Below, piece by piece: positions 14,675-56,615 of a stretch of DNA of 64,000 nt. Each line of letters starts with the position of its first letter. Within the stretch, counting starts at the first letter, position 1. A program made the translations under genes and the position numbers. Source of the stretch: an uncultured Flavobacteriales bacterium (GTDB lineage Bacteria > Bacteroidota > Bacteroidia > CAIKAF01). The notes beneath the pieces are model-generated. The model was not told where the DNA came from. It saw only the letters and a program-made list of their open reading frames with translations, and searched no databases. The stretch covers positions 1,946 through 65,945 of the forward strand of contig CAILUT010000011.1 of NCBI GenBank assembly GCA_903837495.1, given 5' to 3'.

Positions 14675-14823
14675 TTTTAGGGCGGCAGCGGGCTTTCGCC
14701 GGTTGTCCGCGGTTGCCGGGGGCTGGCCCAGCGGGCTTGCGGTGGCTCCTAAAGTCGCCTCCGCGCCACGCGGGCCAGTCCCCCGCCACCCTTGCGGGCA
14801 ACCCAGCTCAATCCCTGTCGCAG
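14675..14823 (-). repeat. GC-rich intergenic repeat element, copy A (reverse orientation)
   Basis: Its reverse complement aligns along ~150 bp with the copies at 24817 and 56465. Shared blocks are GGGATTGAG…GCCCGC, GCGGAGGCGACTTTAGGAGCC and GAAAGCCCG…CCGCCC followed by an A-run. Local GC is about 65% against about 50% for the window. Confidence 0.8.
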
Positions 14824-14890
14824 GCCACCTGCATAAAAATCCAGTTCCAATTTCTACTTACCTTTAAGGGCCTTTCCTAGCCCTTACCGC

Positions 14891-15541
14891 ATGCGCTTAC
14901 ATTCTCAAAAAAAATGGCTTGTTCTTTTGCTGTTCATTTGCATTGTGGGTATTTCGGGAATCTACCTTTGGGATTTCTCGGAACAGCCAGCCGAAAACAA
15001 ATCCAACCCCCATTTAAGCAAAGAACAGATAAAAACCTTGCGCCCCGGCGACATTCTGCTGCGTGAAGGGTATGGATTGGTAAGCACAACCATTGCCGAT
15101 CGTTTAAAAGGCAAATACCGGTTTTCGCATTGCGGAGTTTTGGTTGACACCGATTCGGGCTTTCAGGTAATCCATACGGTTTCTAGCTCCTTGTCGAACA
15201 TTGACGGAATGCAGCAATGTTCCTTGGAAGAATTTGTTCGGCAAAGCAAACCCGGCAGCTTGGCAGTGAGCCGACTTAAAAACGCCAAAGACCGAGTTAT
15301 TTTGGTTGGGCAGACGCTTAGGTACTTGGAACAACGGGTGGCATTTGACCACCGATTTGATGCCCAAGACAGCAGCAGCTTGTTTTGTTCCGAATTGATT
15401 TGGAGGGGGCTGATTCGTGGCGGTGGTAGCGATATAACAAAGCCCCACAGACAAAATGCCTGGGGGCTTTACAGTTTTGATATGTTTTTAAACGAAGCGT
15501 TTTTTGAGGTGGTTTTTTTTCAAAAAACGCCGCAGAATTAA
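14891..15541 (+). CDS. membrane-anchored YiiX-like (DUF830) permuted papain-fold / NlpC-P60-superfamily protein
   Basis: 216 aa. N-terminal TM helix. Conserved Cys in FSHCGVLV and a later His (VIHTVSS), arranged as in permuted papain-like amidases. The assignment is tentative. Confidence 0.4.
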   Translation: MRLHSQKKWLVLLLFICIVGISGIYLWDFSEQPAENKSNPHLSKEQIKTLRPGDILLREGYGLVSTTIADRLKGKYRFSHCGVLVDTDSGFQVIHTVSSSLSNIDGMQQCSLEEFVRQSKPGSLAVSRLKNAKDRVILVGQTLRYLEQRVAFDHRFDAQDSSSLFCSELIWRGLIRGGGSDITKPHRQNAWGLYSFDMFLNEAFFEVVFFQKTPQN

Positions 15542-16011
15542 TAGTCCTTCATTTCTGCCGATGAATCGATGGCAGGCACTTCTTCATCCATCTCCGCTTC
15601 AAACGCATCCAGATTTTCTTCCATTTCTTCTTCTTTGTTCAAATCTTCCTTGCTCATACTAACCAGCCATTTGCCCTCTTCTTTCACCATTTTCAAGGTC
15701 TCGGGTTCCTTGTTTCCTTCCAACTGATAGGTAACCACCGCTGTATCGCCATCAATGGTTTCGCCTACCATAACAATGGTTCTTGGCTTTTTGTCTTCTT
15801 CCGTCAGCATAGAGGCAAATTCCTTGAGGCCATCGAGGAGTTCACCGGTCGATTTGCTGCCATATTGCTTGGCTTCTTCAAATTCAAAGGCATAAAAGTG
15901 GGTCAAAAACTTTTCGGCATTTTTGCTGGGTTTTTCAGCGAAAAAGCTGCAGGAAAAAAGCAGGGTACTAAGTCCCAAATAGAGAGAAAGATACAAAAAA
16001 CGGTTTTTCAT
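15538..16011 (-). CDS. acidic lipoprotein of unknown function
   Basis: 157 aa. Lipobox LLFSC. Highly acidic C-terminus. Converges on the previous gene with a 4-nt overlap. Confidence 0.5.
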   Translation of the reverse strand: MKNRFLYLSLYLGLSTLLFSCSFFAEKPSKNAEKFLTHFYAFEFEEAKQYGSKSTGELLDGLKEFASMLTEEDKKPRTIVMVGETIDGDTAVVTYQLEGNKEPETLKMVKEEGKWLVSMSKEDLNKEEEMEENLDAFEAEMDEEVPAIDSSAEMKDY

Positions 16012-16093
16012 AAAGGGCTTGATAAAATGATTTGAGTTAAAGGTAATAAATATAGGAGTGTACCAAAAAAAACGCCGGGCAATTTGGCTAAAA

Positions 16094-16384
16094 TCAAAGA
16101 ACCTGAACCTCTTCCACGGTTCCTGTGCCCAAAATCTTATTCATTTCTTCGCGAATAATTGAACGTTCCATGTGGATTTCTTGCTTTAAGGCGGCCGACT
16201 GAATGAAGATTTTTAAAACACCCTTTTTAAATTCCACCTTGCTGGTTCTGCTCGCGATAAAAGGCCCTGCATATTGCTTCCAAGCTGCAGAGGCTCGATG
16301 GGCGGTGAGCCCTTCTTGCAGACGGTACTTTTTCATCAAGGCCTCAATGGCTCCTTTTAAGGTATGTTCGTTGGTCGATTTCAC
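16094..16384 (-). CDS. DUF721 (DciA-like) protein downstream of recF
   Basis: 96 aa. Sits immediately after recF, as is usual for DUF721 proteins. This is a conserved recF-DUF721 pairing. Confidence 0.6.
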   Translation of the reverse strand: MKSTNEHTLKGAIEALMKKYRLQEGLTAHRASAAWKQYAGPFIASRTSKVEFKKGVLKIFIQSAALKQEIHMERSIIREEMNKILGTGTVEEVQVL

Positions 16385-16387
16385 GGC

Positions 16388-17470
16388 TTAAAGTTCATGA
16401 AATCGAGCGGGAATGTCAAGGATTTTCAACACTTCGGCTAGTTTTTGTTCTCCGGTATCGGTCAGTAAGACTTGATCTACCTCGCCCGAGTTGGCCCAAG
16501 CCAGCAAACGTCGAACCCGTTCTGGGTCTAATTTATCAAACACATCGTCCAACAACAAAACCGGGGCAAGCCCCAATTTATTTCGTAAAAATGCGTGTTC
16601 GGCCAACTTCAAAGCCACCAAATAGGTTTTTTGTTGGCCTTGCGAACCGAACTTTTTCAGGTTATGGCCTTTCAGCTCAAAGCCCAAATCATCGCGGTGG
16701 GGACCTAAGGTCGTAAATTGGGCTTGAAGGTCTTTATTGCGGCTAGCCCGCCATTGTTCCTCAAACACATCGGGAAGGGCACAGGCTTCATACCTTAATT
16801 TAGGCTGCTCCCCGTATTGGGCCAATTGCTCATAATACCGTTGAAAAACAGGCATAAAAAGCGCTATGAATTCAATTCTGCCATTCAATATGCGCATTGC
16901 CAAAGGAACAATTTGCTCGTCCATAACTTGCAAATAGGCCAAATCAGGCCGCTCTGTTTTCAAAAACGCATTGCGCTGCAAAATAGCCCGGTTGTATCGA
17001 ATCAACGAATCCAAATACAGGGAATCGTATTGAGAAATCAAGGCATCTAAAAACCGGCGCCGGCCCTCGCTTCCCCCTGTTACCAAGGCTCCGTCTTGGG
17101 GAGCAATCACCACGGTGGGGAACCTGCCCATGTGTTCTGAAAGCCGAGGACTGGTTTTTTGATTCCATTTTAGCACTTTCCCTTTTTGCTTGCTAAAACT
17201 CAAGTAAACCTGCTTTGCGGTTTCAGCTTCCTGCAGCTCGGCTTCCAGCATAAAAAAGGCCGAAGGGTCCTCGGCCAAATCCCAAGGATAGCTGGTTTGG
17301 TCAGAAGATTGCAAAAAGCTTTTTGTCATTGACAGGTAATGCACCGCGTCCAGCACATTGGTTTTTCCGCATCCATTGGGGCCAATTAGGGCGTTCACAC
17401 CCGGACCAAACTGAAGTTTCAGTTCGGGGTGGTTCCGAAATTGAACCAAGTGCAGGGAATTCAAATACAT
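16388..17470 (-). CDS. recF: DNA replication and repair protein RecF
   Basis: Walker A GPNGCGKTN. A signature/Walker B region (…VLLLDDV…). Start chosen at MYLNSLHLVQFRNH (17470), not the upstream in-frame Met at 17557. Confidence 0.9.
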   Translation of the reverse strand: MYLNSLHLVQFRNHPELKLQFGPGVNALIGPNGCGKTNVLDAVHYLSMTKSFLQSSDQTSYPWDLAEDPSAFFMLEAELQEAETAKQVYLSFSKQKGKVLKWNQKTSPRLSEHMGRFPTVVIAPQDGALVTGGSEGRRRFLDALISQYDSLYLDSLIRYNRAILQRNAFLKTERPDLAYLQVMDEQIVPLAMRILNGRIEFIALFMPVFQRYYEQLAQYGEQPKLRYEACALPDVFEEQWRASRNKDLQAQFTTLGPHRDDLGFELKGHNLKKFGSQGQQKTYLVALKLAEHAFLRNKLGLAPVLLLDDVFDKLDPERVRRLLAWANSGEVDQVLLTDTGEQKLAEVLKILDIPARFHEL

Positions 17471-17575
17471 GGTACGAAGGTAGAAATATGCAGGCAAATG
17501 CAGGGGCCTATTTCCGTAGGCTGCACCCAAGTAAAGAAACAGACAAAAGCCACCCACCTTCGCTGTAGGGAATGC

Positions 17576-17583
17576 TACCTTTG
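17576..17583 (+). promoter_or_regulatory. Bacteroidota -7 box TAccTTTG, 19 nt upstream of the cytochrome ORF start
   Basis: Exact TAnnTTTG match just upstream of the ATG at 17603. Confidence 0.3.
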
Positions 17584-17602
17584 AGCATCAATCTAAACTC
17601 CG

Positions 17603-18479
17603 ATGCATATTCCTAGCCTTGTTTTAATTGGCTTTTTGTTTTTAAGTGCCTGTGAACCAAAAACCACACAGAAAACAGAGCCACCGAGTCAAACAGCAGC
17701 GTTTATTTCAACCAATTGCGGCAGCTGCCATGGGATTTGGATTAACAGAACAGGCATCGGCTCCGAATTTAATTCAGGTGAAGAAAAGCTGGATACAAGC
17801 CTATCCAGAAAAGCAAGAGTTCATCGATCAAATGGCCTCGTTCCTATTGCAACCCGAGGTCCAAAAAAGCCGAATGCAAGGAGCGGTAAAAACCTATGGA
17901 CTTATGCCTAAAATGGGCTATACTTTAAATCAGGCAAAAGAAATAGCGGCTTGGTTGTACAACCACGAACCGGTCGATTCGAATGCAGCCACCCCAAGCC
18001 CAGATGAGAATCCCCTAGAAAAGGGACGCAGCATTGCCCTTGCAGCCAAAGCGGCCTTGGGCAAACAACTCATGAGCAGATTAAAAGAAGGAGGTCCGGT
18101 GGCCGCCATAGACTTTTGCCAACTGAATGCCCTACCTATTACCGACAGCGTGTCAAAAACCAAAGGAGCGGAGGTAAGAAGAATTACAGACAAAGCTAGG
18201 AACCCGAAAAATGCGTGCAGTGCGGAGGAATTCACCTTGCTTCAGAGCTGGAAAACGGATTTGGCCTTGGGGAAACAACCCGAAGCCGTATTGGTAGATG
18301 GGAGCGGGCATATTCTGGGTTATTACCCCATATTTACGGAAGAAAAATGCTTGGCTTGCCATGGAAAGCCGAGTCTGGAGCTAAAGCAAATTTTGCAAAA
18401 ACGCTATCCGACGGATTTGGCGTTGGGTTACGATGTGGGGCAAATTCGAGGGGCATTCCGGGTGCGAATGCCCAAATAA
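17603..18479 (+). pseudogene. diheme c-type cytochrome lipoprotein disrupted by an apparent +1 frameshift (or a sequencing indel)
   Basis: The frame starting at 17603 encodes a lipoprotein signal (MHIPSLVLIGFLFLSAC) and a first heme motif NCGSCHG, then degenerates. The frame starting at 17646 carries the rest of a cytochrome c fold (…GLMPKMGYTLNQAKEIAAWLYNH…) and a second heme motif EEKCLACHGK, and runs to the stop at 18479. Neither frame alone gives a sensible protein. The junction is near 17725-17745. Confidence 0.55.
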
Positions 18480-18510
18480 AAAAGGGATGATTTGTCCATT
18501 GATTTGGCCT

Positions 18511-18660
18511 GCGGCAGGGATTGACAGGGCTAGCGCGCAAAGGCTAGGGCCAAAACCAGCCTGAGGCGGAAGGGGCGACCTTGGGAGCCCCCTTGCGCCC
18601 AGTGCAGGTTTGGCCTTAGCCTGCGTACTAGCCCAGAAAGCCCGGCTGCCGCCCAAAGCC
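18511..18660 (+). repeat. GC-rich intergenic repeat element, copy B (more diverged)
   Basis: GCGGCAGGGATTGACAGGGCTAGCGCGC … GGGGCGACCTTGGGAGCCC … CAGAAAGCCCGGCTGCCGCCCAAAGCC. Same block order as the other copies. Confidence 0.7.
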
Positions 18661-18851
18661 ACAGTACAATGAAGACCAAATTCCATTAAAAAACCCGTAA
18701 ACTTTTCGTTGCTTAAACTCCAGAATGCACCCTGAATTAGGGCAGCATCATATCTTTTTTTCTTTTTTAATTTGATTATTAGGCCGTTGTGAATTGGGGT
18801 TTGAGCAGAAAAAAAAACAACCCGTTCGTTTTTAATAAACAATAACAATTC

Positions 18852-18859
18852 TATATTTG
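18852..18859 (+). promoter_or_regulatory. Bacteroidota -7 box TAtaTTTG upstream of the PKD-repeat gene
   Basis: ctaTAtaTTTGtac lies 27 nt upstream of the ATG at 18886. The upstream region is AT-rich. Confidence 0.35.
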
Positions 18860-18885
18860 TACAAAGCGAATTAAACCCTTTCAAA

Positions 18886-22590: not shown

Positions 22591-22607
22591 ACAAAGCGAG
22601 CAGATTT

Positions 22608-22641
22608 GAGACGCCAGGGCAAACGCTCTGGCGTTTTTTTT
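22608..22641 (+). terminator. rho-independent terminator after the PKD gene
   Basis: GACGCCAG-ggcaaacgct-CTGGCGT followed by TTTTTTT. Confidence 0.75.
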
Positions 22642-22706
22642 GGGCTATGGCAACCGCAGGTGAACCTAAAAAAAAATAGCGCTTTGAAAATCCATAGCTT
22701 TGTTGT

Positions 22707-23561: not shown

Positions 23562-23666
23562 AAAAAGGGCAACACCATTCAAAGACAAGAATCGCTGTAA
23601 CCCTTAAATAAACAAGGAAACTACAATTAATTGCTTGTGCTTGCGTGGAAATAATTGCAAGAGACA

Positions 23667-23694: not shown

Positions 23695-23714
23695 CAGATT
23701 AAATAAACAAAAAA

Positions 23715-24725: not shown

Positions 24726-24743
24726 GCATTTTTGATTCAAGAA

Positions 24744-24777
24744 AAAGCCGCTCCAGCAATGGGGCGGCTTTTTTTTG
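24744..24777 (+). terminator. rho-independent terminator
   Basis: AAGCCGC-tccagcaatgggg-GCGGCTT followed by TTTTTT. Confidence 0.7.
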
Positions 24778-24816
24778 CTTTTTTTTATGGATGGGGGCAA
24801 CGGAAAAGAGGTGGCC

Positions 24817-24966
24817 GCGGGCGGGATTGAGCAAGGTAGCCCGCAAAATTGGCGGTGCCTGGCCCGGGAGCTGCGGAGGCGACCTTGGGAGCCACCGCAA
24901 AGCCGCTGGGCCAGCCACTGCCAATAGCGGACTACCTGCGAAAGCCCGAAACCCGCCCAAAAAAAA
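24817..24966 (+). repeat. GC-rich intergenic repeat element, copy C
   Basis: GCGGGCGGGATTGAGCAAGGTAGCCCGC … GCGGAGGCGACCTTGGGAGCCACCGCAAAGCCGCTGGGCCAGCC … GGACTACCTGCGAAAGCCCGAAACCCGCCCAAAAAAAA. Nearly identical in layout to copies D (reverse complement) and F. Confidence 0.85.
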
Positions 24967-25485
24967 TCAGAAAAAAAGCATAGGCTGTTCCTGTCCCCGC
25001 GGCCCCAAGTCAATCAATTCCATATTAAAAACACGGCCTGTTTCCACCTGAAAACGCAGGGCAGTAATGGCCTGGTGCCAACCCTGATTGCCAATGGCAC
25101 CGGGATTAAGGTGTAGGCTGCCCGGAAAAATGCCGGGGCTCACCAGGGCAATGTGGGAATGCCCGCAAACCACCACATTGGGTTTGTGGTGCTGAACCAA
25201 ACGCAGAGCTTGAGCATTGTATTTGCCTGGACGGCCCACAATGTGCATCATAAAAAACGACAGACCTTGCAGGGAAAAGTGTAGAAATTCAGCGCATTGT
25301 TTGCGTACATCTGTGCCGTCAATGTTGCCATACACTGCCCGGACGGGCTTAAATTGCCGCAAATAATCCAAGCCAGCGGCAGGTCCTACATCGCCGGCAT
25401 GCCAAATTTCATCAACCTGAGTAAAATAGGGTTCTACATTTTTCGGAAAGGCACCGTGGCTATCGCTTAGCAGCAGAATGCGCAT
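24967..25485 (-). CDS. metallophosphoesterase (YfcE / MJ0936-like phosphodiesterase)
   Basis: 172 aa. Motifs LLLSDSHG, …AGDV…, GNID, …CGHSH…. Confidence 0.8.
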   Translation of the reverse strand: MRILLLSDSHGAFPKNVEPYFTQVDEIWHAGDVGPAAGLDYLRQFKPVRAVYGNIDGTDVRKQCAEFLHFSLQGLSFFMMHIVGRPGKYNAQALRLVQHHKPNVVVCGHSHIALVSPGIFPGSLHLNPGAIGNQGWHQAITALRFQVETGRVFNMELIDLGPRGQEQPMLFF

Positions 25486-25487
25486 GG

Positions 25488-33672: not shown

Positions 33673-34962
33673 ATGAAATCGAAAACCAAGGTGTACCTGC
33701 TTTCAATTGGAGATGAATTGCTCATTGGCCAAGTAATCAATACCAACGTTGCTTGGCTTTCCACAAAATTAAACGAAATTGGACTTAAGGTAGAGGAACA
33801 ACGAACCATTGCCGACCGACCCGACAGCATTGGTTCAACCTTAAAGGAATGGATGCAACCCGGACATGTTGTAATTTGCACCGGGGGCTTAGGACCCACC
33901 GGAGACGACATTACTAAAAACACCCTAAGGCAGTTTTTTCAAGACGAATGGAGAACCGATGAAGGTGTTTTGAGCGTTTTAGAAGGATTTATGAAAGCCC
34001 GAGGCAGAACCCTAGACCAGATCAACAAGGGGCAGGCTGAATTGCCAAAGTCCTGCAAAACCTGGCTAAACCACATTGGAACAGCCCCCGGAATGTTGTT
34101 CGATACCCCAAAAGGCATTCTAATTAGTTTGCCCGGCGTTCCACGCGAAATGGGCTACCTAATGGAACAGTACGGCCTGGATTTTCTAAAAACGCGCTTT
34201 CGCTTGTCGCCCATTCGCCACTTGACGTTCCACACCGAAGGCATTCCCGAATCGCAACTCATGGTGTATTTGCGCGACTGGGAATTGCAGTTGCCCAAAA
34301 CGCTTTCCTTGGCGTATTTGCCAAAAGCCGGCCGAGTGCGCCTGCGTTTGTCTCAGCTAAATCCCAAGCAAAACAACGTTGATTTGTTTGAATTGCAGGC
34401 AGCCCAATTGCACAAATTGTTGGGCGTTGAGTGCATTGGAACAGGCGAGCAGGACTTGCCTGTGGCTGTTTTGCAGGAATTAATCGAAACGAAGACCACG
34501 CTTGCCACGGCAGAAAGCTGCACAGGCGGCAAAATTGCAAGTCTAATGACCGCGGTTCCCGGTGCTTCTGCGGCCTTTATGGGGGGAATGGTTGCCTACG
34601 ATAATTCTGTAAAAATCAGGACTTTAGGGGTTCGTCCGGAGGACATAGAGCAGCATGGTGCGGTGAGTTCGGTGGTGGTTGAATCTATGGCCAGAGGCAT
34701 TCGGAATTTAACCGGAGCCGATTACGGCATTGGCACTTCTGGAGTCGCCGGGCCCGGGGGCGGAACCCCTGAAAAGCCAGTGGGTTTAATTTGGGTGGGA
34801 ATTTCAGGCCCTGAGGGCACCTATTCCCGGGCATTCAAAATGGCTGCCGACCGCTCAGGCAACATCGAGCGCAGCTCATTTGCCGCATTAAATCTATTCC
34901 GAAAAACCCTGTTGAACAACTGGACCTTGCCCGAACCTACCTTCTGGGCCTTCTCACATTGA
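33673..34962 (+). CDS. cinA: competence/damage-inducible protein CinA (MoaB/MogA-like N-domain plus CinA C-domain)
   Basis: 429 aa. The N-terminus VYLLSIGDELLIGQVINTN is the canonical CinA start. A C-terminal CinA domain with ATAESCTGG is present. Confidence 0.85.
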   Translation: MKSKTKVYLLSIGDELLIGQVINTNVAWLSTKLNEIGLKVEEQRTIADRPDSIGSTLKEWMQPGHVVICTGGLGPTGDDITKNTLRQFFQDEWRTDEGVLSVLEGFMKARGRTLDQINKGQAELPKSCKTWLNHIGTAPGMLFDTPKGILISLPGVPREMGYLMEQYGLDFLKTRFRLSPIRHLTFHTEGIPESQLMVYLRDWELQLPKTLSLAYLPKAGRVRLRLSQLNPKQNNVDLFELQAAQLHKLLGVECIGTGEQDLPVAVLQELIETKTTLATAESCTGGKIASLMTAVPGASAAFMGGMVAYDNSVKIRTLGVRPEDIEQHGAVSSVVVESMARGIRNLTGADYGIGTSGVAGPGGGTPEKPVGLIWVGISGPEGTYSRAFKMAADRSGNIERSSFAALNLFRKTLLNNWTLPEPTFWAFSH

Positions 34963-34963
34963 T

Positions 34964-35125
34964 GGATTTTTGGGGCGGGTTTCGGGCTTTCTCCGGTAGT
35001 CCGCAGCTAAAAGGCTCAGCAACTGTGGCTTTGCGGTGGCTCCTAAAGTCGCCTCCGCAGCTCACGTTGCTGTAGCCGTTTAGCTTTGCGGGCTACTCGG
35101 TTCAATCCCGCCCGCAGACTCAAAA
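34964..35125 (-). repeat. GC-rich intergenic repeat element, copy D (reverse orientation)
   Basis: Its reverse complement reads GCGGGCGGGATTGAACCGAGTAGCCCGC … GCGGAGGCGACTTTAGGAGCCACCGCAAAGCC … GGAGAAAGCCCGAAACCCGCCCCAAAAA. It matches copy C almost block-for-block. Confidence 0.85.
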
Positions 35126-37610: not shown

Positions 37611-38615
37611 ATGAAAAAAATACGGGTTGCCATTAATGGATTTGGACGAATTGGACGCATTACATTCCGGGCATTGCTTACAAAACCTGAGATTGAGGTT
37701 GTGGCCATCAACGATTTAACGGGTGGCAGCACCCTGGCCCACCTCTTGAAATACGATTCCGTTCAGGGACGGTTCAACGGCGAGGTTGGTACTATAAATG
37801 GAAATTTGTTGGTGAATGGCACCGAAATTCGGATTACGGCCATTAGAAATCCGGCTGAACTTCCTTGGAAAGAAATGAATGTAGATGTTGTTTTGGAATG
37901 CACCGGATTGTTTTTGGATTCTGAGAGTGCTTCTAAGCATTTGGAGGCCGGCGCTGGGAAGGTGTTGCTTTCGGCACCGGCAAAGACTTCCGACATTAAA
38001 ATGGTGGTTTTGGGAGCCAACGAAGGGAGTCTAAGGGCCGATGACCGAATCATCTCCAATGCCTCATGCACCACCAATTGCGTTAGTCCTTTGGTAAAAA
38101 TAGTAGATGAGATTTGTGGCATTGAAAACGGTTTTATGAATACCATACATGCCTACACCTCAGACCAACGTTTGCAAGATGCACCCCACAGCGACCTTCG
38201 CCGTGCGCGTGCCGCCGCTCTTTCTTTGGTTCCAACCTCGACCGGAGCGGCCCGGGCCATTGGAAGAATTTTCCCTCACCTGAGCGGCAAACTAGACGGC
38301 ACCTCGGTGCGGGTTCCTACCCCCACGGGCAGTTTAACCGATATGTCGTTGATTGTTCGCAACCCGGTTGATGCAACCACCTTAAATCAGGCCTTTAAAA
38401 AAGCGGCTGAAACCGATTTGAAGGGCATTTTAGAGTATACCGAAGACCCCATTGTATCGATCGATATTGTAGGAAATCCGCATTCCTGCATTTTTGATTC
38501 TGAATTGACCTTTGTAAAAGACAGCTTGGTGAAGGTGTTTGGGTGGTACGACAACGAAGCGGGCTATTCAAACCGCCTTGCCGATTTGTGCCTTTTGGTG
38601 GGCAACCTGAAATAA
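37611..38615 (+). CDS. gap: glyceraldehyde-3-phosphate dehydrogenase
   Basis: 334 aa. N-terminus INGFGRIGR. Active-site ASCTTNC. Confidence 0.95.
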   Translation: MKKIRVAINGFGRIGRITFRALLTKPEIEVVAINDLTGGSTLAHLLKYDSVQGRFNGEVGTINGNLLVNGTEIRITAIRNPAELPWKEMNVDVVLECTGLFLDSESASKHLEAGAGKVLLSAPAKTSDIKMVVLGANEGSLRADDRIISNASCTTNCVSPLVKIVDEICGIENGFMNTIHAYTSDQRLQDAPHSDLRRARAAALSLVPTSTGAARAIGRIFPHLSGKLDGTSVRVPTPTGSLTDMSLIVRNPVDATTLNQAFKKAAETDLKGILEYTEDPIVSIDIVGNPHSCIFDSELTFVKDSLVKVFGWYDNEAGYSNRLADLCLLVGNLK

Positions 38616-38687: not shown

Positions 38688-38845
38688 GCGGCAGGGATTG
38701 AAGCAGCTACCCCGCAAGGGGCTGGGCGGCAGCCAAAACAGCATCAAAAGAGCGACCTTGGGAGCTCCTTTTGCTGCTGTTTTGGCCCGGCTAGCACCGC
38801 GGAGTAGCGCTGAAAGCCCGTAGGCCGCCCCCATAAAAATCCGCT
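38688..38845 (+). repeat. GC-rich intergenic repeat element, copy E
   Basis: GCGGCAGGGATTGAAGCAGCTACCCCGC … AGAGCGACCTTGGGAGCTCC … GCTGAAAGCCCGTAGGCCGCCCCCATAAAAATCC. It abuts the yihY stop codon. Confidence 0.75.
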
Positions 38846-39739
38846 TTATTTGCCTTTTTTTCCGCGGGCTATACCGGCATCAACATCGAAGCCAATCAAC
38901 AAAGCCAGGGAGGCCAAGTATAAAAAAATCATGGCCATGGGAACTGCACCTACCACGCCGAACACCTGATTGTATTGAAAAAAGCGCTCAACATACACTC
39001 CGAAGGCCCAGGTAAACAGCAATAAAAACAAGGAAGAAATCCAGCTGCCTGCAGAAAAGAAACGCAAGCGAAGGGATTTGGCAGGGGCGATGCGAAACAA
39101 AGCCGCAACAAACAACCAAGTCATGCCCAAGCTGAACAGCCAACCCAGCTGACCGGAAAGCCAAGAAACGGTGCCCGACAAAAAGTCAATGGCCTGAAAT
39201 ATGGTAACAACCAAACCGAAAGCAAGGCTAGAAAGCAACATGACCAACACCGAAATTAGGCGTACTTGACCGGGCCTTCGGCCTTCAGAAATAAAGGCCG
39301 AAGCGTTGAAGGCCTGAATAAGACCTTTGACGCCTGCGGAAGAAAGCCAAAGTCCTGCCAGCAAGGTAAACCACAGGAATCCTTCGCGTTTTTTCAACAG
39401 TACATCGGCAATGATGGGGCCTACAAACTCGAACAAAGCGGGTGGAATGAGTTCTTTGCTAAACCGAAACCACTCATAACCCAACTGCCCACCGGGAAAA
39501 AAGGGGACTAGACTGACCAGAAAAATAAGGGTTGGAAAAAAAGCCAGCATGAGTTGAAATGCCACGGAAGATGCACGCAAGGACAGGCTGTTGCGTTGGG
39601 CTCCGACCAAAAAGTAGGTTGCGATGCGCCACAGGCTAACCCCACCAAAGCCTGGGGGCGAAAAGCGGTAAGCAGAACGCAGCAGGATGGCCAAATGGGT
39701 ATGTGCAAGAAAAAAACGGAAAAAACGGGTTGATTTCAT
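38846..39739 (-). CDS. YihY/BrkB family inner-membrane protein
   Basis: 297 aa, about 6 TM helices. N-terminal region …SLRASSVAFQLMLAFFP… is characteristic of YihY (formerly called ribonuclease BN). Confidence 0.7.
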   Translation of the reverse strand: MKSTRFFRFFLAHTHLAILLRSAYRFSPPGFGGVSLWRIATYFLVGAQRNSLSLRASSVAFQLMLAFFPTLIFLVSLVPFFPGGQLGYEWFRFSKELIPPALFEFVGPIIADVLLKKREGFLWFTLLAGLWLSSAGVKGLIQAFNASAFISEGRRPGQVRLISVLVMLLSSLAFGLVVTIFQAIDFLSGTVSWLSGQLGWLFSLGMTWLFVAALFRIAPAKSLRLRFFSAGSWISSLFLLLFTWAFGVYVERFFQYNQVFGVVGAVPMAMIFLYLASLALLIGFDVDAGIARGKKGK

Positions 39740-45192: not shown

Positions 45193-45193
45193 G

Positions 45194-46787: not shown

Positions 46788-46795
46788 AGGGTAGT

Positions 46796-47941: not shown

Positions 47942-47960
47942 ACCCCAAATGTAAAAAAAT

Positions 47961-49933: not shown

Positions 49934-51186
49934 AGCTTTGGTATCAAAATTCGTTTGCTGACCTGAAATCCTGCCGACAATCCGCGGCCAGCCGCATTTG
50001 GCCAAATGGATTCGGCATTTCGGGTAAAAAGCTGAAAAGCCCAGCCCCTACCTGCATCTACCCCAAAGTTAAGGCCTACCTTCCATAGGCATACTCCCCC
50101 ACCCGATGCACTTATTCCGGCATTCAGCCGCCCTTTACCCAAATAATAAAAAGCCAATTCCACCTCAGGAATTGGCATTAAATGCGGAGCATAATGCACC
50201 TGTGCCTGAAGCAAGGCCTTGTTTTGGAAAAGCCGCCGGCCGTAACCCAGCCGAATTCCAACCGGAAGAACGCTTTCAAAAGACCGCCGTACATCTGAAA
50301 CAATTAAATTAGAACCTATGCTGTCCAATTGTTCTTGGAACAAGGTTTCGCCTACCTCGGCTATATTGGGTACTGCAAAACCCGACCAAACCAGTTCTGA
50401 ATCCAATTCGATTGCCTGGGCTTGCCGATTCCAAAACATCAACCCCGCATCTTGCACCGAAAAGCTCACAACATGTCCGTTCTTATGCTGGTATTCAAGG
50501 CTGCCCCGAAACGAAAAACCCAATCCGGCCGGATATAAAAATGCCGAACCCGATGGGTCCGAAGCCCGAAGCTGAACTCGATCCATGCCCAGGCGGAGCT
50601 CATCTCCGTCCGGGTGGGTGTAAAAACTCCCCCCCTGCATTTGGGCATCTCGAAAAAAACTGCCGTTTACAAAGCCCAAACCAAAACTTAAAAACCAGGT
50701 TGAATTTGTTCGGCTAAAGGCCCTGGCCAAGGAAAAATCAATGGTTTGGTAGTTGGTTAAAAACCCCGACCCCGCATTCAAATCCAAAGTTTGACCTGCG
50801 TAGGGAGCATTGCCTCGACTGATTAACCCAAACAAATCGGCGTCGTAAGAAGCATAACCAATCCAAGAATTTGAAAATCCCAAGGAATGCCTCCACTGCC
50901 CTCCGCCGAAAGCCGAATCCAAACCCCAATATCGAAAAGCCGTTTCCCAGCGTCCGCTGGCGTATCCCTGCTGATCGGCTTGCACCGAAAGCATGTCGGC
51001 CTGGCTGAACGACTTGCCAATCAAAGCTTGAGAAACAAACCAGCCGTTCAGGTGGCTGGACTCAAAATTGCCCTCAGAATGCAAGCTAACCTGCCCTTGA
51101 CTGGAATACCTGTCGTGGAAAAAATCGGGCCTGGCCTGATTCCCAAACCACCCAAACAATGGAAATAAAAAAGGAATGGGGTTCAT
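49930..51186 (-). CDS. putative outer-membrane beta-barrel protein, unknown family (2nd gene of a coupled operon)
   Basis: 418 aa. Gly/aromatic-rich with an alternating hydrophobic pattern typical of OM barrels (…GFSFRGSLEYQ…, …LAFYYLGKGRLNAGISAS…). Overlaps the upstream gene by 4 nt. Confidence 0.4.
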   Translation of the reverse strand: MNPIPFLFPLFGWFGNQARPDFFHDRYSSQGQVSLHSEGNFESSHLNGWFVSQALIGKSFSQADMLSVQADQQGYASGRWETAFRYWGLDSAFGGGQWRHSLGFSNSWIGYASYDADLFGLISRGNAPYAGQTLDLNAGSGFLTNYQTIDFSLARAFSRTNSTWFLSFGLGFVNGSFFRDAQMQGGSFYTHPDGDELRLGMDRVQLRASDPSGSAFLYPAGLGFSFRGSLEYQHKNGHVVSFSVQDAGLMFWNRQAQAIELDSELVWSGFAVPNIAEVGETLFQEQLDSIGSNLIVSDVRRSFESVLPVGIRLGYGRRLFQNKALLQAQVHYAPHLMPIPEVELAFYYLGKGRLNAGISASGGGVCLWKVGLNFGVDAGRGWAFQLFTRNAESIWPNAAGRGLSAGFQVSKRILIPKL

Positions 51187-52790
51187 CGGTTAAATCCTAT
51201 GTTCACTCCGGCACGAGCCACCAACCGAAAATCCATGTAATAATGGCTTTTCATCGACACCAAATTGGCTCCGGGCGGGGTGTTTAAAAAAGCTTTCAAT
51301 TTTACAAATGCCGTTTGCTTCAGCACACCCAGTTTGGCCTCGCTTACCTCTATGCTTTGATTAAACGCCACCGCCTGTTCTACAATTCCAGTGTTTGGGT
51401 TGGGTTGCCCGGCAGGAACAATTAAATTTTGAATCAGGGTGTCGAGCACCTGCCTATTGGCATCCAACAGTTCAATCAGCAAACGGGTTTCAAAGGGGAA
51501 CAAGGTTTCGCCCTTTAACCACAGGGTGGCGTTGTTCAGGGCTTTGTAATCGGATTCCTTCAGCGTCCAGGCAACCGTATCGGTAAAGGCCAAATTTTGA
51601 GCCGAAAACTTCATGGGCAAACGGGCATCAATGCTAAACTTGGGCAAGGCATCGGGATATATAAAATCCATAAATCCTGCGGTATTGCCCAAGGGATTTA
51701 TGCTTACATCTACCTCAACCCCAATTTCATCGGGCAGGGCCGATAAAAAATCCAGAATGTTGGAATTTTGGTTGTTGATTTCGTAGGTGTAGGTCTTGGG
51801 CGCGGGTGCTGCTCCGCCGCCCGTCCAAACTGCCCGATCTATCCATAAATTTTTGTTGATGATGTCGTGTTGAAGGTCCACCTGCAAACCGCTCTCGCTT
51901 CGTTCTGCCCAAAAACGCCTTGGCCTTACCTTTAATTCAGCTCCCAAGGTGTTTTCTAACCGCAAAACAACACGGGCTTGCTCAAATTGAACGGCATCGG
52001 CCGACAACTTGCTGAGCTCGGGAATGCGCGTCAAAGAGGCGGGAATCGACAGCTCTTGAGGCAAAAAGGCCCCACGCAACCACAGTGGATCCATGTCTTT
52101 GAACTGGGTGGCTATCGTAAATAAGGCTTGACCTTGCTGCACGTTCAGCGGCTCTTCGCCCGCAGCAATAGAAGGCAGAACCATAATTTCTAGGCGGTTT
52201 GAGCCCTTTAAATCCAATCCCCGCAAATCCAACCTATGGCCCGCCAAATCGAACGATCGGCTCAGGGCCACCGGATTTTGCCCGGGTACCCAAGCCGCTA
52301 AACTCCCTGAAAATCCAATGGCTTGACCATTCAACCTGGCCATAGGAATGCTGTACTTGAAATTCATTTTACGCGGAATCGATGAACTAACCGCAACGTC
52401 AATCCGCCCCCCCTCCATCAATGCCTCCACCATTTCAGCATTGGGCACCATAAAATTCATGTAAATGGGAGGCAGTTGCATGTCGATCCCCGGATAAATG
52501 GTAATGGCCGGATAATCCCAATAAAAGGTATCGTTCACCGCCAGGGTTCGAAAGGCCGACAGGGTATCCAAATTAATCGGAAGGGCATTCCCTTGAATTT
52601 CCAAAACCAACTGCCCATTGGGATCAACAGCCACCGATGAATCTCCCACCAAATTCTGCAAGGTCATTCGGCTGTGCATAATAGGCGCCAAGGCTTCCAC
52701 ATCCCAATCGGTTTCAGAAGGGTTGCAGGCCAAAAGACCAACTAAGATTCCTAAGAATAAGAAGAGCTTTTTCACAGAATAAAGGTACAT
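51183..52790 (-). CDS. large lipoprotein of unknown function (1st gene of a coupled operon)
   Basis: 535 aa. Signal plus lipobox LVGLLAC. No recognisable catalytic motif. Confidence 0.5.
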   Translation of the reverse strand: MYLYSVKKLFLFLGILVGLLACNPSETDWDVEALAPIMHSRMTLQNLVGDSSVAVDPNGQLVLEIQGNALPINLDTLSAFRTLAVNDTFYWDYPAITIYPGIDMQLPPIYMNFMVPNAEMVEALMEGGRIDVAVSSSIPRKMNFKYSIPMARLNGQAIGFSGSLAAWVPGQNPVALSRSFDLAGHRLDLRGLDLKGSNRLEIMVLPSIAAGEEPLNVQQGQALFTIATQFKDMDPLWLRGAFLPQELSIPASLTRIPELSKLSADAVQFEQARVVLRLENTLGAELKVRPRRFWAERSESGLQVDLQHDIINKNLWIDRAVWTGGGAAPAPKTYTYEINNQNSNILDFLSALPDEIGVEVDVSINPLGNTAGFMDFIYPDALPKFSIDARLPMKFSAQNLAFTDTVAWTLKESDYKALNNATLWLKGETLFPFETRLLIELLDANRQVLDTLIQNLIVPAGQPNPNTGIVEQAVAFNQSIEVSEAKLGVLKQTAFVKLKAFLNTPPGANLVSMKSHYYMDFRLVARAGVNIGFNR

Positions 52791-52882
52791 ATTTTTTATT
52801 CAGGGGCTCAAGTCTTTGGCAAACGGACAATGCCCGTTTTAAGGTACACCCCTGCATCGAACAGCCCAAAAAAGCACTTTAT

Positions 52883-54097
52883 TTAACCTTCAAAAAACGG
52901 AGGCAATTCCAGCCCATCGGGCCCGTATTGCTGAGGCACGGAAGCTCCCGGAAAATCGTGCGGGTACAGATATCCTTTTCCATATCCTTCCATTTTCATC
53001 CAATCGGTGGGGGCATTTCGCAAATGCAGGGGCACGGGCAAATCGCCGGTTTGCCGCACAAAGTCCAGCGCCCGGTCAATGGCCAGGTAGGCTGCATTCG
53101 ATTTGGCCGATTTTGCCAGGTACACCACAACCTGCGACAAAACAATGCGCGATTCAGGCATTCCAATGGCTTTCACCGAATCCAGGCAAGCCTGAGCCAG
53201 CAGCAGGGCGTTGGGGTTGGCAATTCCAATGTCTTCCGAGGCTAAAATCAGCATGCGCCGGGCAATAAACTCCGGTTTTTCTCCTCCGTGCAGCATGCGG
53301 GCCAGCCAGTACAGCGCCGCCTGCACATCCGATCCGCGCAGGCTTTTAATAAAAGCCGACACCACATCGTAGTGCATTTCGCCCGATTTATCGTAGCGCC
53401 AGCGGGGATCTTGCAGGGCGGCGGCCAGCACCGCCCCATCGATTCGGGCTTTTTCTCCGTCAAAGGCATAATTTACGGCCATTTCAAGGGCATTCAGCAT
53501 GCGCCGGGCATCGCCGCCACCGGCTTGAATCAGGGCTTCCGCTTGCAGCAGCTCCACCTTACGCTCTTGCAGCCAGGCATCTTCCAGCAGGGCGCGCTGC
53601 AGCACCTCGTTCAGTTCTTGGGTACTTAGGGGTTGCAAGGTCAGCACCTGGCAGCGGCTCAGCAGGGCCGAATTAACCTCGAACGAAGGATTTTCGGTGG
53701 TCGCACCAATCAGGGTAAAAAGCCCTTGCTCCACGGCGGCAAGCAGCCCATCTTGCTGGCTTTTGTTGAATCGGTGAATTTCGTCAATAAAAACCAAGGG
53801 TTTCGCTTGGTATTCAAACAGCGAAGATTTGCGGGCCTTTTCAATCAGGTCGCGAATGTCTTTCACCCCGCTCGACACAGCGTTAATGGCGTCAAAGGGC
53901 CTGCCGGTTTCCAGCGCCAGCACGCGGGCCAGGGTGGTTTTGCCGGTTCCGGGGGGGCCATAAAAAATCAAAGAAGGGAGCAGACCAGATTTCAGCCATT
54001 TGCGCAGGGCATTCACAGCAACCGACTGTCCCTGAACCTGTTCCAGCGATTTCGGACGCAAGCGTTCCGGCAAAGGTATGTGGTTGGCCTCCATGTA
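52883..54097 (-). CDS. rarA: replication-associated recombination protein A (AAA+ ATPase RarA/MgsA)
   Basis: Walker [10 protein letters not shown]. Walker [14 protein letters not shown]-terminal MgsA domain is present. Start chosen at [14 protein letters not shown]; the ORF could extend to 54118. Confidence 0.9.
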
Positions 54098-54139
54098 AAT
54101 TCGGCCGAAAGGTAGCAAAATAAGGCATTCCCTGAACGT

Positions 54140-54240
54140 GGGAGTGATTGGGGCGGCAGCCGGGCTTTCAGGGGTAGTCGGCGCATGCCGGGGGCGTGGT
54201 GGGGGAAAAGCAACCCAATGCAGAGTTCGGCCTTGCGGGG
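54140..54240 (-). repeat. partial/diverged copy G of the GC-rich intergenic repeat (reverse orientation)
   Basis: Its reverse complement contains …CCCCGCAAGG… and the 3' block GACTACCCCTGAAAGCCCGGCTGCCGCCCC. It lacks the GGCGACCTTGGGAGC core. Located in the rarA/gltX divergent intergenic region. Confidence 0.55.
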
Positions 54241-54374
54241 TTCATTGAATTTGGGTAAATTTTGAGAAAAACGCCATGGAAATCGAGCTGCAGCCTTTAC
54301 CTAAAAAATCCAGCAAACCGAGGGCAATGGGTAAAAAAACGCTGGGTGTTGTACCTTTGCAGCAAATTTGTTGA

Positions 54375-55898
54375 ATGAAGACTCCTGTTTGTGTGCGATT
54401 TGCTCCCAGTCCAACCGGCCCTTTGCATTTGGGCGGGGTTCGGACTGCGTTGTACAATTACCTGTTTGCCAAAAAACACGGTGGGCAGTTTATGCTGCGC
54501 ATTGAAGATACGGACCAAGCCCGTTTTGTGCCCGGGGCCGAACAGTACATCATGGATTCTTTGCGCTGGTGCGGCTTGCAGTGGGACGAAGGCCCCGAAG
54601 CCGAAGGCAGCAAAGGCCCTTACCGGCAATCGGAACGCAAAGACATGTACCGGCAATACGCCGAACAATTAATCCAAGCCGGAAAAGCCTATTACGCTTT
54701 TGATACCCAAGAAGAATTGGAAGACGTTCGCGAACGCATGAAAGCCTCGGGAAACAATACCTGGCAGTACAATTCCATTACTCGGGTAAACATGAAAAAC
54801 TCCCTTACCCTACCCGCCGACGAAGTGAAGCGGCGCTTGGATTCGGGCGAAGCCTATGTGGTGCGGTTGCTGGTTCCACGAAACACCGACATCAAAGTAA
54901 ACGACTTGATTCGCGGCGTGGTGGTGGTAAAATCGGAACACATTGACGACAAGGTGCTGTTTAAAAGCGATGGCATGCCGACCTACCACTTGGCCAACGT
55001 GGTGGACGACCATTTGATGGGAATAACCCATGTGATTCGTGGGGAGGAATGGCTGCCCTCGGCCCCTTTGCATGTGCTGCTGTATGAATCGCTGGGCTGG
55101 ACCGACACCATGCCTCAATTTGCGCATTTGCCCCTTATTTTGAAACCCGACGGCAACGGCAAGTTGAGCAAGCGCGATGGAGACCGTTTGGGATTTCCTG
55201 TTTTTCCGCTGGAATGGAAAGACCCGGCCACCGGAGAAATTTCATCGGGTTACCGAGAAGGAGGCTGGTACCGCGAGGCCGTGGTGAATTTGGTCGCACT
55301 GTTGGGTTGGCACCCTACAAACAACCAAGAGGTATTTAGCATGGACGAATTGATTGAGGCCTTTAGCCTAGAAAAAGTGGCCAAAGCCGGAGCCAAATTC
55401 GATGTTGAAAAGGCCAGGTGGTTTAATCAGCATTATTTAAGGCAACAAACAGACCTGCAATTGGCGGATGCCATCAAACCCCAATTGGCAGATCTTGATT
55501 TTACGGAAGAATTGCTGCTAAAAACAATAGCCTTGGTACGCGACCGAGCTGTATTTCCCGCCGATGTAGCCGAGGACGTTGCTGGCCTTTTGCAGGCTCC
55601 AAAGGCCTATCAAAAAGATGCCTTAGCCTCCAAATGGAAGGCCGATTCGGCCGAAAAACTACAAGGCCTGTTGAATTGGATGGAATCTGAACCGCATTTA
55701 GAACCTGCCAACATTGGGCCCGGCATAAAAAACTGGCTAAACGAACAGAACTATGGAATTGGCAGTGTAATGCCGCTGGTACGCATTGCATTAACGGGCG
55801 GATTAAGCGGTCCTGATATTTTTGAGACCATAGGGTTGATTGGTTTAGAGGCCACGGGGCAGCGCATTTCAGCCTTGTTAAACCAGCAGCAACAATGA
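54375..55898 (+). CDS. gltX: glutamate--tRNA ligase
   Basis: 507 aa. HIGH-type motif PSPTGPLHLGG. KMSKS-type KLSKR. Confidence 0.95.
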   Translation: MKTPVCVRFAPSPTGPLHLGGVRTALYNYLFAKKHGGQFMLRIEDTDQARFVPGAEQYIMDSLRWCGLQWDEGPEAEGSKGPYRQSERKDMYRQYAEQLIQAGKAYYAFDTQEELEDVRERMKASGNNTWQYNSITRVNMKNSLTLPADEVKRRLDSGEAYVVRLLVPRNTDIKVNDLIRGVVVVKSEHIDDKVLFKSDGMPTYHLANVVDDHLMGITHVIRGEEWLPSAPLHVLLYESLGWTDTMPQFAHLPLILKPDGNGKLSKRDGDRLGFPVFPLEWKDPATGEISSGYREGGWYREAVVNLVALLGWHPTNNQEVFSMDELIEAFSLEKVAKAGAKFDVEKARWFNQHYLRQQTDLQLADAIKPQLADLDFTEELLLKTIALVRDRAVFPADVAEDVAGLLQAPKAYQKDALASKWKADSAEKLQGLLNWMESEPHLEPANIGPGIKNWLNEQNYGIGSVMPLVRIALTGGLSGPDIFETIGLIGLEATGQRISALLNQQQQ

Positions 55899-56251
55899 GG
55901 CAGCGCATAGCCATAAAAGAACTGCGTTTTTTTGGCTACCATGGGGTTTATGAACATGAAAAAAAAAACGGGCAATGGTTTAGCCTGAATCTTTCGGCCG
56001 ACTTGGAATTGGATGACCGGGCATGCCAGGCAGATTTGGTTGAGGGCACCACCGATTATGGCTGCGTGGTTCAAAGCATGTTGGACGAAATGAAAACCCC
56101 ATCGAACCTATTGGAGCATGCTCTAGCTAGGCTAAAAACCCGTTTAATTCGAGAATACCCTGAAATGAAAAACGTTTCTTTATCGTTGGCTAAACAAAAC
56201 CCCGCCGTTGGAGGTTATGTAGCTGAGTTTGAAGTATCTGTTTTTTGGTAA
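55895..56251 (+). CDS. folB: dihydroneopterin aldolase
   Basis: 118 aa. The FFGYHGVYEHEKKNGQ block is characteristic of FolB. Overlaps the gltX stop by 4 nt. Confidence 0.8.
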   Translation: MRQRIAIKELRFFGYHGVYEHEKKNGQWFSLNLSADLELDDRACQADLVEGTTDYGCVVQSMLDEMKTPSNLLEHALARLKTRLIREYPEMKNVSLSLAKQNPAVGGYVAEFEVSVFW

Positions 56252-56254
56252 AGC

Positions 56255-56440
56255 ATGCAATTAAAAGTTCCCTCAAAGGTTTGTCCGGCTTGTTTTAAGA
56301 AATTTCATTGCCATGAAAAGCCGGGCTGTTGGTGTGAGAGTGTTTGCTTGTCGAGAGATACCTTATCAAAATTAAGGAAGCGGTATGTAGATTGCCTTTG
56401 CGATACATGTTTGGCCTTGTACAACACCTCAAAAAATTAA
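56255..56440 (+). CDS. cysteine-rich CWC-family small protein
   Basis: 61 aa with 10 Cys arranged as CPAC…C…CWC…C…C.C..C. Matches the Cys_rich_CWC pattern. Confidence 0.55.
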   Translation: MQLKVPSKVCPACFKKFHCHEKPGCWCESVCLSRDTLSKLRKRYVDCLCDTCLALYNTSKN

Positions 56441-56464
56441 CAACGCTTTTCCAATAGGGGGCTC

Positions 56465-56615
56465 AGCGGTAGGGATTGAGCAAGGTAGCCCGCCAAGTTG
56501 GCCTGGCCTGGCCCGCGCGGCGCGGAGGCGACTTTAGGAGCCCACGCAAGCCCGCTGGGCCGGCCAAGGGCAACTGCGGACTACCTGCGAAAGCCCGGCC
56601 ACCGCCCCTAAAAAT
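56465..56615 (+). repeat. GC-rich intergenic repeat element, copy F
   Basis: AGCGGTAGGGATTGAGCAAGGTAGCCCGCC … GCGGAGGCGACTTTAGGAGCCCACGCAAGCCCGCTGGGCCGGCC … GGACTACCTGCGAAAGCCCGGCCACCGCCCCTAAAAATAAAAAA. Confidence 0.85.

Follow-up and report, generated by a model that had tools for sequence, protein, structure and literature searches.

The stretch analysed here, a window of 64,000 nt (64 kb) from an uncultured Flavobacteriales bacterium of the GTDB lineage CAIKAF01 (assembly GCA_903837495.1, contig CAILUT010000011.1), is 99.4% identical to the metagenome contig Ga0247843_1000059. Its genes are ordinary chromosomal genes of Bacteroidota, including GAPDH, CinA and proteins sorted by the T9SS (type IX secretion system), and dispersed between them are copies of an imperfect palindrome of about 150 nt, the element examined in this work. 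An earlier inspection of the letters alone (hereafter, the sequence-only reading) had proposed a family of GC-rich intergenic repeats with seven copies in the window, and the family proved to be real. A covariance model of the copies, the construction of which that reading had recommended, was trained on the six window copies, and a window search with filters off recovered six full matches of 148-152 nt, with scores of 113-160 bits and E-values from 1e-26 to 1e-38. The next matches were the copies’ own reverse strands at 15-25 bits, followed by noise. The core motifs occur in the window six times each as against 0.02-0.06 expected from shuffles, and motif searches of the window returned no copies beyond the six full ones and a remnant. 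The copies stand out by their GC content, as had been noticed (59-71% vs 46-53% for the window), and the open reading frames (ORFs) lying over them were taken as artefacts, a view that fits the compensatory, non-codon pattern of substitution described below.

The reference copy, c3, occupies 24817-24966 on the + strand (160 bits). It begins with the 5' base module GCGGGCGGGATTGA (24817-24830, +), carries the apical module GCGACCTTGGGAGC (24879-24892, +) and ends with the 3' base module GAAAGCCCGAAACCCGCCC (24940-24958, +) and an A-run (24959-24966, +), whereby the tail abuts the stop of gene 24967-25485(-). Copy c1 (14672-14821, -; 146 bits) sits between two + strand genes, its A-rich 3' tail abutting the stop of a DNA_alkylation-like gene (13866-14666), and is near the family consensus, with 0.92 identity to many copies. 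Copy c2 (18511-18662, +; 113 bits), a divergent stem variant, begins 32 nt past the stop of gene 17646-18479. Both c4 (34965-35115, -; 154 bits) and c7 (56466-56615, +; 155 bits) are placed between convergent genes, with tails abutting the stops of the CinA-like gene 33673-34962 and of gene 56622-57590(-), respectively. The central stems of c5 (38688-38838, +; 122 bits) are entirely different from those of the other copies; it lies between GAPDH (37611-38615) and gene 38846-39739(-), the stop of the latter abutting its tail. What had been counted as a partial seventh copy at 54140-54240 is only a 41-nt remnant, c6, of the base of the 3' arm (54151-54191, -; the reverse complement of GGGCGGCAGCCGGGCTTTCAGGGGTAGTCGGCGCATGCCGG), located in a divergent intergenic region. 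Alignment with two metagenome contigs, L193 and L214, which are ~94.5% identical to the window and keep a full copy at this site, showed that c6 has suffered a 101-nt internal deletion between GGGC microhomologies. Copy orientations alternate along the 64-kb window, which ruled out a replication-strand bias.

For the secondary structure, the six window copies were submitted to RNAalifold in an unfitted MAFFT alignment, and the result was a single rod of 45 pairs, 23 of them compensated. The window and 80 genome loci together supplied 111 copies to a larger alignment, and 109 distinct copies were scored: 94.3% of the pair cells were standard pairs, double changes were present at 36 of the 45 pairs, and the covariation score reached 0.412, compared to 0.105 for shuffles and 0.02-0.06 for slid-partner controls. 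Divergent relatives with AT-rich stems, taken from the set collected with a pattern free of the tip motif, also form this rod, and compensation is seen at 25 of their 29 pairs. The covariation supports the long-range rod only, and local hairpins inside each arm, resembling repetitive extragenic palindromes (REPs), were rejected. In one strand, the element is a single rod of ~55 pairs. The unit measures ~150 nt, or ~170 nt when a weakly conserved 5' flank (..TTGAGG.GGCCY) and the CC and A-rich tail are included. One of the blocks regarded as a family feature by the sequence-only reading, GCAAAGCC(G)CTGGGCC(A/G)GCC, is merely one arm of a covarying stem in the sub-group of c1, c3 and c7.

Three modules stand at fixed spacing, namely base, apical and tail. 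In the base module, 5'-GGGAUUGA faces GAAAGCCC-3', forming three G-C pairs, an A.G pair, two U-A pairs and a tandem G.A/A.G; inspection ruled out a K-turn at this place, the non-bulged strand having no GA beside the C-stem. The apical module has the form GCGA-N-tetraloop-N'-GAGC with a tandem G.A beneath the tetraloop, the loop being UUUA in 52 cases, CUUG in 36, UUCA and GCGA in 8 each, GUUA in 4 and GUGA in 3. In the tail, a CCGCCC without pairing partner leads into a stretch rich in A and poor in G. The non-canonical pairs persist where their neighbours change: a rare base variant, CGGAUAGA/GAUAGCCG, has its Watson-Crick pairs swapped with compensation and its G.A pairs kept, and the closing pair of the tip changes from C-G to A-U or G-C, again with the G.A pairs kept. 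The distance from GGGATTGA to CCGCC was 134-137 nt in 120 of 134 tip-free matches. As the scan pattern demanded all three motifs, part of the motif invariance among the genome loci is circular; the unbiased samples are the window copies, ten model matches that failed the pattern and the tip-free metagenome set.

The fold is very stable, with a minimum free energy of -90.7 kcal/mol for c3 (z = -8.1). The two strands fold equally well as RNA (-90.7 vs -90.4 kcal/mol), and z was -6.3 for folding as DNA. One conserved G.U pair apart, which is kept in 87 of the 109 copies, G.U pairs (~54) are no commoner than A.C (44-69), while the purine-purine mismatches are present on one strand only. Since both strands fold alike and G.U is not in excess over A.C, the structure could equally be one of single-stranded DNA (ssDNA) or of RNA. 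As to the structured RNA suggested at the outset, covariation gives the structure strong support, an RNA-specific mark is missing, and a function as RNA is possible. A GUAG/CUAC stretch within the stem (columns 21-24 and 153-157) covaries (GC 64 / CG 36, etc.) and is not at the foot of a hairpin.

The window is syntenic with loci of three metagenome-assembled genomes (MAGs) at 66-83% nucleotide identity, and c3, c4, c5 and c7 each have a copy at the same intergenic site in other species. In the nearer species, the positional ortholog is the best match among ~250 copies, with an identity of 0.85-0.93. At the same time, the identity at four-fold degenerate sites in the flanking genes is no higher than 0.41-0.52 with VGMT01 and 0.35 with JAQCBQ01. 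The c3 ortholog (L070:6548-6697) is 93% identical and has two compensated pairs; the c4 orthologs are 0.90 (L092) and 0.71 (L002, seven compensated pairs) identical, those of c5 0.85 (L092) and 0.54 (L002, nine compensated pairs), and those of c7 0.91 (L170) and 0.83 (L038, four compensated pairs). Altogether, four ortholog pairs contain 22 compensated double changes as against 13 single ones (3 of wobble type and 10 disruptive). Identities of 0.83-0.93 next to four-fold sites at 0.35-0.52 mean that the copies are constrained in place. The comparison shows that the copies are inherited vertically at the same sites, evolving far slower than silent sites and by compensated changes. Gene conversion among copies or re-insertion at hot spots may also create similarity at shared sites, but would not account for the positional orthologs being mutual nearest relatives. 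Copy c2 is absent from the VGMT01 locus together with the Tll0287-like gene upstream of it (17646-18662 jointly), and 450 nt of unrelated AT-rich spacer (L070:391-841) are found there instead. No empty site was seen in 49 flank-pair comparisons, a biased sample in that the loci had been fetched for having a copy.

The sequence-only reading would have been undone had these been the only copies, and the element would have counted as a described one had Rfam matched it; neither was the case. Copies turned out to be abundant elsewhere: among the matches listed, the exact three-block pattern was present in more than 94 stretches from at least four Bacteroidota MAGs, those with matches being VGMT01 from Lake Tanganyika, CAIKAF01 from La Plata, JAQCBQ01 from the Caspian and CAYTJB01. 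One MAG has at least 40 separate 8-kb blocks with a copy, a lower bound to set beside the hundreds per genome estimated by the sequence-only reading. The tip-free pattern was present in at least 120 stretches of many lake metagenomes, and more than 240 copies were gathered in all; no element was found in viral contigs. In Rfam 15, the window gave no match at gathering thresholds, and in E-value mode nothing appeared but unspecific hairpin similarity to miRNA precursors, with 15-30 bits where thresholds of 55-168 apply. Several metagenome contigs (L097, L098 and L099) end within or just beside a copy, and the repeat probably breaks the assemblies of this lineage.

The gene context was counted for 115 non-redundant copies. 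The 3' A-rich tail faces the stop of an opposite-strand gene in 68 of 109 copies at a median distance of 18 nt. On the 5' side, 66 of 101 copies come after the stop of a gene on their own strand, the median distance being 79 nt. Hence the proposed abutment on stop codons applies to the 3' end with the A-run and not to the other end. Likewise, the mostly convergent placement described earlier is correct for the window (4 of 7) and not for the family: where both neighbours were called (n=95), 35% of the copies were between convergent, 56% between tandem and 9.5% between divergent genes. Divergent gene starts flank only 9 of these 95 copies, and the sole such copy of the window is the decayed c6. 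Between tandem genes, 28 sense copies compare with 25 antisense. All eight closely spaced pairs (8/8) are head-to-head with tails pointing outward toward convergent genes, and the genes enclosed between closely spaced copies are housekeeping ones (SmpB, lipoamide dehydrogenase, methionine synthase) with no transposase among them.

Intrinsic terminators appear scarce in these genomes: with a crude gene caller and a simple rule applied to the window and all genome loci, ~17% of the called gene 3' ends had a hairpin-plus-T-run terminator within 120 nt. Replacement of canonical terminators by the copies was ruled out by the frequencies near them, 17% and 30% vs 17%. The element itself is not an intrinsic terminator, and the termination signal of the sequence-only reading fails in this canonical sense, for CC and an A-run (A 0.6-0.7), not a T-run, come after the hairpin on the conserved strand, and on the other strand the T-run precedes the hairpin. 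At 24738-24787, 30 nt upstream of c3, there does exist an intrinsic terminator of canonical, bidirectional form (A-run, 18-bp GC hairpin, two T-runs), which is kept in the VGMT01 ortholog with a compensated change. Upstream of the copies there is a weak TTTGAGG.GGCCY motif, and 20 of 115 copies have a TAnnTTTG match (-7 box, at most 1 mismatch) with its end 7-10 nt ahead of the hairpin, which is above positional background. A promoter belonging to the element was nevertheless rejected because the box is properly placed in those 20 copies only and there is no -33 signal.

The flanks bear on the way in which the copies reached their sites. Target-site duplications (TSDs), which the sequence-only reading proposed to look for, did not rise above controls (longest shared flank k-mer of 4.45 nt vs 4.43 nt), and neither inverted repeats nor stem extension into the flanks exceeded controls. 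Of 242 copies, 34 have CGCCC as the pentamer immediately 5' of the hairpin and 79 have [CG]GCC[CT], which echoes the element’s own invariant 3' CGCCC. The combination of a missing TSD with a CGCCC-like 5' flank fits single-strand transposition by HUH/Y1 enzymes of the IS200/IS605 and REP-associated tyrosine transposase (RAYT) type. As known from IS608, HUH/Y1 transposition inserts 3' of a short specific sequence and makes no duplication.

Genes of that type do occur in the same genomes. A phmmer search with approximate queries (IS608 TnpA and E. coli RAYT) provided the first lead, the evidence itself coming from Pfam and NCBIfam. Among the ORFs of the fetched loci, MAG CAIKAF01 has two Y1/RAYT-like genes, both matching Pfam Y1_Tnp; among the NCBIfam models they match REP_Tyr_transpos best, with 68 and 56 bits where the cut-off is 80. 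A PDB sequence search with the RAYT-like protein gave no match at E <= 0.01. One of the genes, that of locus L031, is single-copy and syntenic in six independent contigs next to Reprolysin-like, riboflavin-synthase and Omp28 genes, and all six have, 155-205 nt upstream of the gene, either a copy of the element or the cut end of a copy. In four of these contigs, the older copy is split by a segment with integrase and RhuM remnants and a fresh copy. In L095 (86-1640) and L096 (3540-3900), this segment comprises a RhuM-family gene, tyrosine-integrase remnants and a complete copy inside the split, oppositely oriented older copy upstream of the RAYT gene; it may be an island integrated into the element.

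Short REPs of a different kind accompany these genes. In the part that separates the HuH motif from the Y motif of the RAYT-like gene (L031:5060-5190, L095-L102 and L180), an in-frame doublet GGGCAGACCnnnGTGTCTGCCC + GGGCGAACACnnnGGTTCGCCC was observed, nearly identical in homologs that are 48-58% identical in protein (Lewinella, Flavobacterium and another genome). An intergenic tandem array of at least five copies of the short GGGGCAGACCTACGTGTCTGCCCC REP, with a period of ~44 nt, occupies L067:5150-5400. A classical REPtron was seen at L084:2980-3820, where a RAYT-like gene (3005-3568, -) is flanked by GTAG-AGACGCAC-nnnn-GTGCGTCT REPs, five in exact form, of which one lies in frame within the gene, a trait reported for TnpA_Y1 subclass 2.4. 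The L084 REP units end in the same CCGCCC-AAA tail as the 150-nt element, and their cluster holds a 33-nt fragment of the element’s head fused exactly after CCGCCC.

Taken together, the element is read, with a probability of about 0.5, as an undescribed REP/REPIN-like dispersed imperfect palindrome of a freshwater Bacteroidota clade, spread by an HUH-type reaction, now mostly fixed and retained as a hairpin at gene 3' ends (REPIN denotes a paired REP forming a hairpin). A REP-like nature is best supported because the palindrome is dispersed over gene 3' ends, lacks a TSD, has strand-specific irregularities, shares its genomes with RAYT-type genes and has persisted vertically for long; of the REP/MITE-like element proposed earlier (MITE, miniature inverted-repeat transposable element), this half is favoured and the classical MITE is unsupported. 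According to this reading, the ancestral copies would have spread as ssDNA through a TSD-less, sequence-targeted HUH/Y1 (RAYT/IS200-like) reaction, inserting 3' of a CGCCC-like pentamer, and most would be immobile now. Transcribed in 3' untranslated regions or intergenic RNA in either orientation, they would yield a very stable 3'-end hairpin, which may be the reason for their retention. Such a hairpin could block exonucleases or insulate neighbouring transcription units, and at ~15 nt or less from the stop it could stall terminating ribosomes, as reported for E. coli REPs (work cited in PMC12306157 gives this effect for REPs within 15 nt of the stop). The conserved modules would be putative binding sites of the mobilising enzyme, of a host factor or of both.

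Several observations weigh against this interpretation. The link of the element to a RAYT transposase is circumstantial: the L031-type gene has a copy on one side only, never downstream, and any gene neighbours a copy by chance in ~20% of cases. This RAYT also carries the canonical short REP doublet in-frame, which differs from the element; as the same short REP is also intergenic in the same MAG (L008, L067), it is likelier than the element to be the cognate of this enzyme. Around RAYT homologs at 48-58% identity, the element is absent over 20 kb, and these homologs carry short in-gene REP doublets instead. Mobility was not observed: there was no insertion polymorphism even between MAGs that are 97-98% identical, and the sole polymorphism is the slippage deletion in c6. 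Terminators beside copies are neither depleted nor enriched (antisense 17%, sense 30%, baseline 17%). Finally, the fixed rod length and the conserved apical module ~55 bp from the base are unexplained by REPIN biology, and suggest a second ligand or an RNA function.

Fixed length, conserved apex and deep conservation in place are also the reasons to keep open a reading based on host function. Here the element would be primarily a host-encoded module of structured RNA (or ssDNA) that binds a factor, the rod offering some specific protein or complex two tandem-G.A modules set at a fixed distance, and would serve in cis at hundreds of gene ends for mRNA 3'-end processing, decay control or termination, with a mobile origin being incidental. 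We consider this possible, if on balance unlikely. Conservation in place far beyond neutral expectation, non-canonical pairs that are kept while the adjoining Watson-Crick pairs covary, the near-constant 134-137 nt span, apical loops that mostly belong to stable RNA tetraloop types (CUUG, UUUA, GCGA, GUGA), the single conserved G.U, the mismatches confined to one strand and the location at gene 3' ends all speak for it. The lack of a wobble signature (G.U ~ A.C) speaks against RNA, and the nearly equal sense and antisense counts in tandem pairs mean that orientation is not fixed, so that many mRNAs would contain the complement without the G.A modules; the partner protein is putative, none having been found in the analysis. 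Somewhat more doubtful still is the stronger form, in which the element would represent a new class of factor-binding module, a length-calibrated rod with two tandem-G.A motifs ~55 bp apart kept by purifying selection at hundreds of gene ends throughout a clade of Bacteroidota, where it would take part in forming mRNA 3' ends or in decay, or would be a chromosomal site of folded ssDNA. If true, the repeat family would be host machinery rather than a parasite, in a phylum with scarce canonical terminators.

Other explanations are much less probable than either the REP-like or the host-factor reading. Each copy might be a gene in its own right for a small RNA, with a Bacteroidetes-type promoter a short way upstream, and its transcription toward the end of the adjacent gene would give a stable 5' hairpin and antisense read-through. 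The weak upstream motif, the suitably placed TAnnTTTG matches and a G-poor, C/A-rich downstream tail, readable as a Rho-utilisation-like tract, agree with such a gene, but 83% of the copies have no credible -7 box and there is no -33 signal, the head-to-head pairs leave just 41-87 nt for two promoters, and that strand has no terminator downstream, all of which makes the proposal improbable. A classical MITE, that is a deletion derivative of an insertion sequence (IS) with DDE transposase recognised via its terminal inverted repeats, would share with the element the ~150 bp size, ends that are inverted repeats, the high copy number and the intergenic location. It is very improbable given that flanks show no TSD, that the palindrome extends over the whole length and not the termini alone, and that the genes between nearby copies are housekeeping ones, with no multi-copy transposase seen in 1.7 Mb of flanking DNA and none with matching ends. 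Least probable of all is a target of site-specific recombination like attC or attB, used by genomic-island integrases. Integron attC sites, too, are palindromes with imperfections and are recognised in a folded, single-stranded form, and the L095/L096 integrase-remnant segment lies inside a split older copy beside the RAYT gene; yet this is the only island-associated case seen, the copies occur one by one between housekeeping genes, in either orientation, and form no cassette arrays, there are no R''/R' core sites, and copies are conserved at sites with no integrase nearby.

Among known systems, the REP-like reading finds its closest counterpart in the REPINs and bacterial interspersed mosaic elements (BIMEs) of Proteobacteria. 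Both are dispersed GC-rich hairpins of ~100-150 nt at gene 3' ends with tens to hundreds of copies, lack TSDs, maintain the hairpin by compensation and persist vertically for long; both coexist with single-copy syntenic RAYT-like genes, with a copy beside one, and many copies of the element are ~15-20 nt from the stop, as in E. coli REPs. The element is thus extragenic, high in copy number, compensated in its hairpin and inherited mainly vertically, as REPs and REPINs are. It differs in that no GT[AG]G (or CGTC) foot is present at the base of a short REP palindrome of 20-40 nt, nor an inverted pair of such REPs, in having its apex among the most conserved parts where the REPIN spacer and tip are variable, in a length fixed within 2 nt, in a RAYT that has the element on just one of its sides and another, canonical short REP of its own, in conservation at orthologous sites across species with near-saturated silent sites, and in its host phylum, Bacteroidota. 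Lacking a GTAG-footed short palindrome, the element falls outside the strict definition of a REP, and with a RAYT link that is circumstantial it was not filed as a member of the REPIN family.

For Bacteroidetes, TnpA_Y1 subclass 2.6 (RAYT group 5) has been described with flanking "atypical secondary structures", one of them a hairpin of 122 nt in Belliella baltica (Quentin et al. 2018, PMC6006769), and the 16-mers flanking group 5 RAYTs are moderately abundant (PMC5581495). These structures resemble the element in the Bacteroidota host, in the long imperfect hairpin without a GTAG foot and in having copies elsewhere in the genome; moreover, the RAYT-like gene adjoining the element shows two motifs of subclass 2.6, the Y-motif YIHQNP and the WQ motif. 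On the other hand, there is no sequence similarity to the subclass 2.6 REPs listed in that study, GGGATTGA and GAAAGCCC being absent from the REP tables of PMC6006769, and the HuH motif here is DHFH rather than NH[LIV]H. The likeness to the subclass is judged from motifs. The in-frame REP insertion in the RAYT gene is, furthermore, a trait that the same study reports for subclass 2.4 and not 2.6. The Correia elements (NEMIS) of Neisseria are also near-palindromes of ~150 bp with hundreds of copies, often gene-adjacent and co-transcribed, forming long RNA hairpins that affect transcript stability and termination; their 26-bp terminal inverted repeats, TA duplication, IHF site and outward promoters were not found here. 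The subterminal hairpins of IS200/IS605 and of the derived palindrome-associated transposable elements (PATEs) have in common with the element irregularities confined to one strand, such as are recognised in ssDNA. For the putative insertion of the element, further likenesses are a place 3' of a short specific sequence, the missing duplication and a left-flank target related to the right-end cleavage sequence. In those systems, however, two short hairpins stand at the ends of a longer element, whereas here the whole element is one hairpin, and it bounds no tnpA/tnpB pair. Compared to integron attC, the element has no core-site motifs, and its copies are single, in both orientations and among housekeeping genes.

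REPIN-RAYT systems have so far been characterised almost only in Proteobacteria, and the literature on Bacteroidetes offers only the unnamed structures beside RAYT genes. The present family adds rich comparative evidence (more than 240 copies, covariation at 36 of 45 pairs and orthologous copies in species with saturated silent sites), which bears on the question of whether such repeats are parasites, domesticated symbionts or elements of the host. It is a candidate new RNA or DNA structural family for libraries of the Rfam type, and its conserved modules and fixed length offer handles for pull-downs and mutagenesis. The element may also serve as a marker for a widespread freshwater lineage and is a likely cause of contig breaks in the MAGs of that lineage.

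One more feature was observed directly upstream of c7, where an intergenic block of ~210 nt (56252-56465) is ~80% identical to JAQCBQ01 (L038), with four-fold sites at 35%. This block had no Rfam match and no convincing ORF, and could be an unannotated small gene or RNA.

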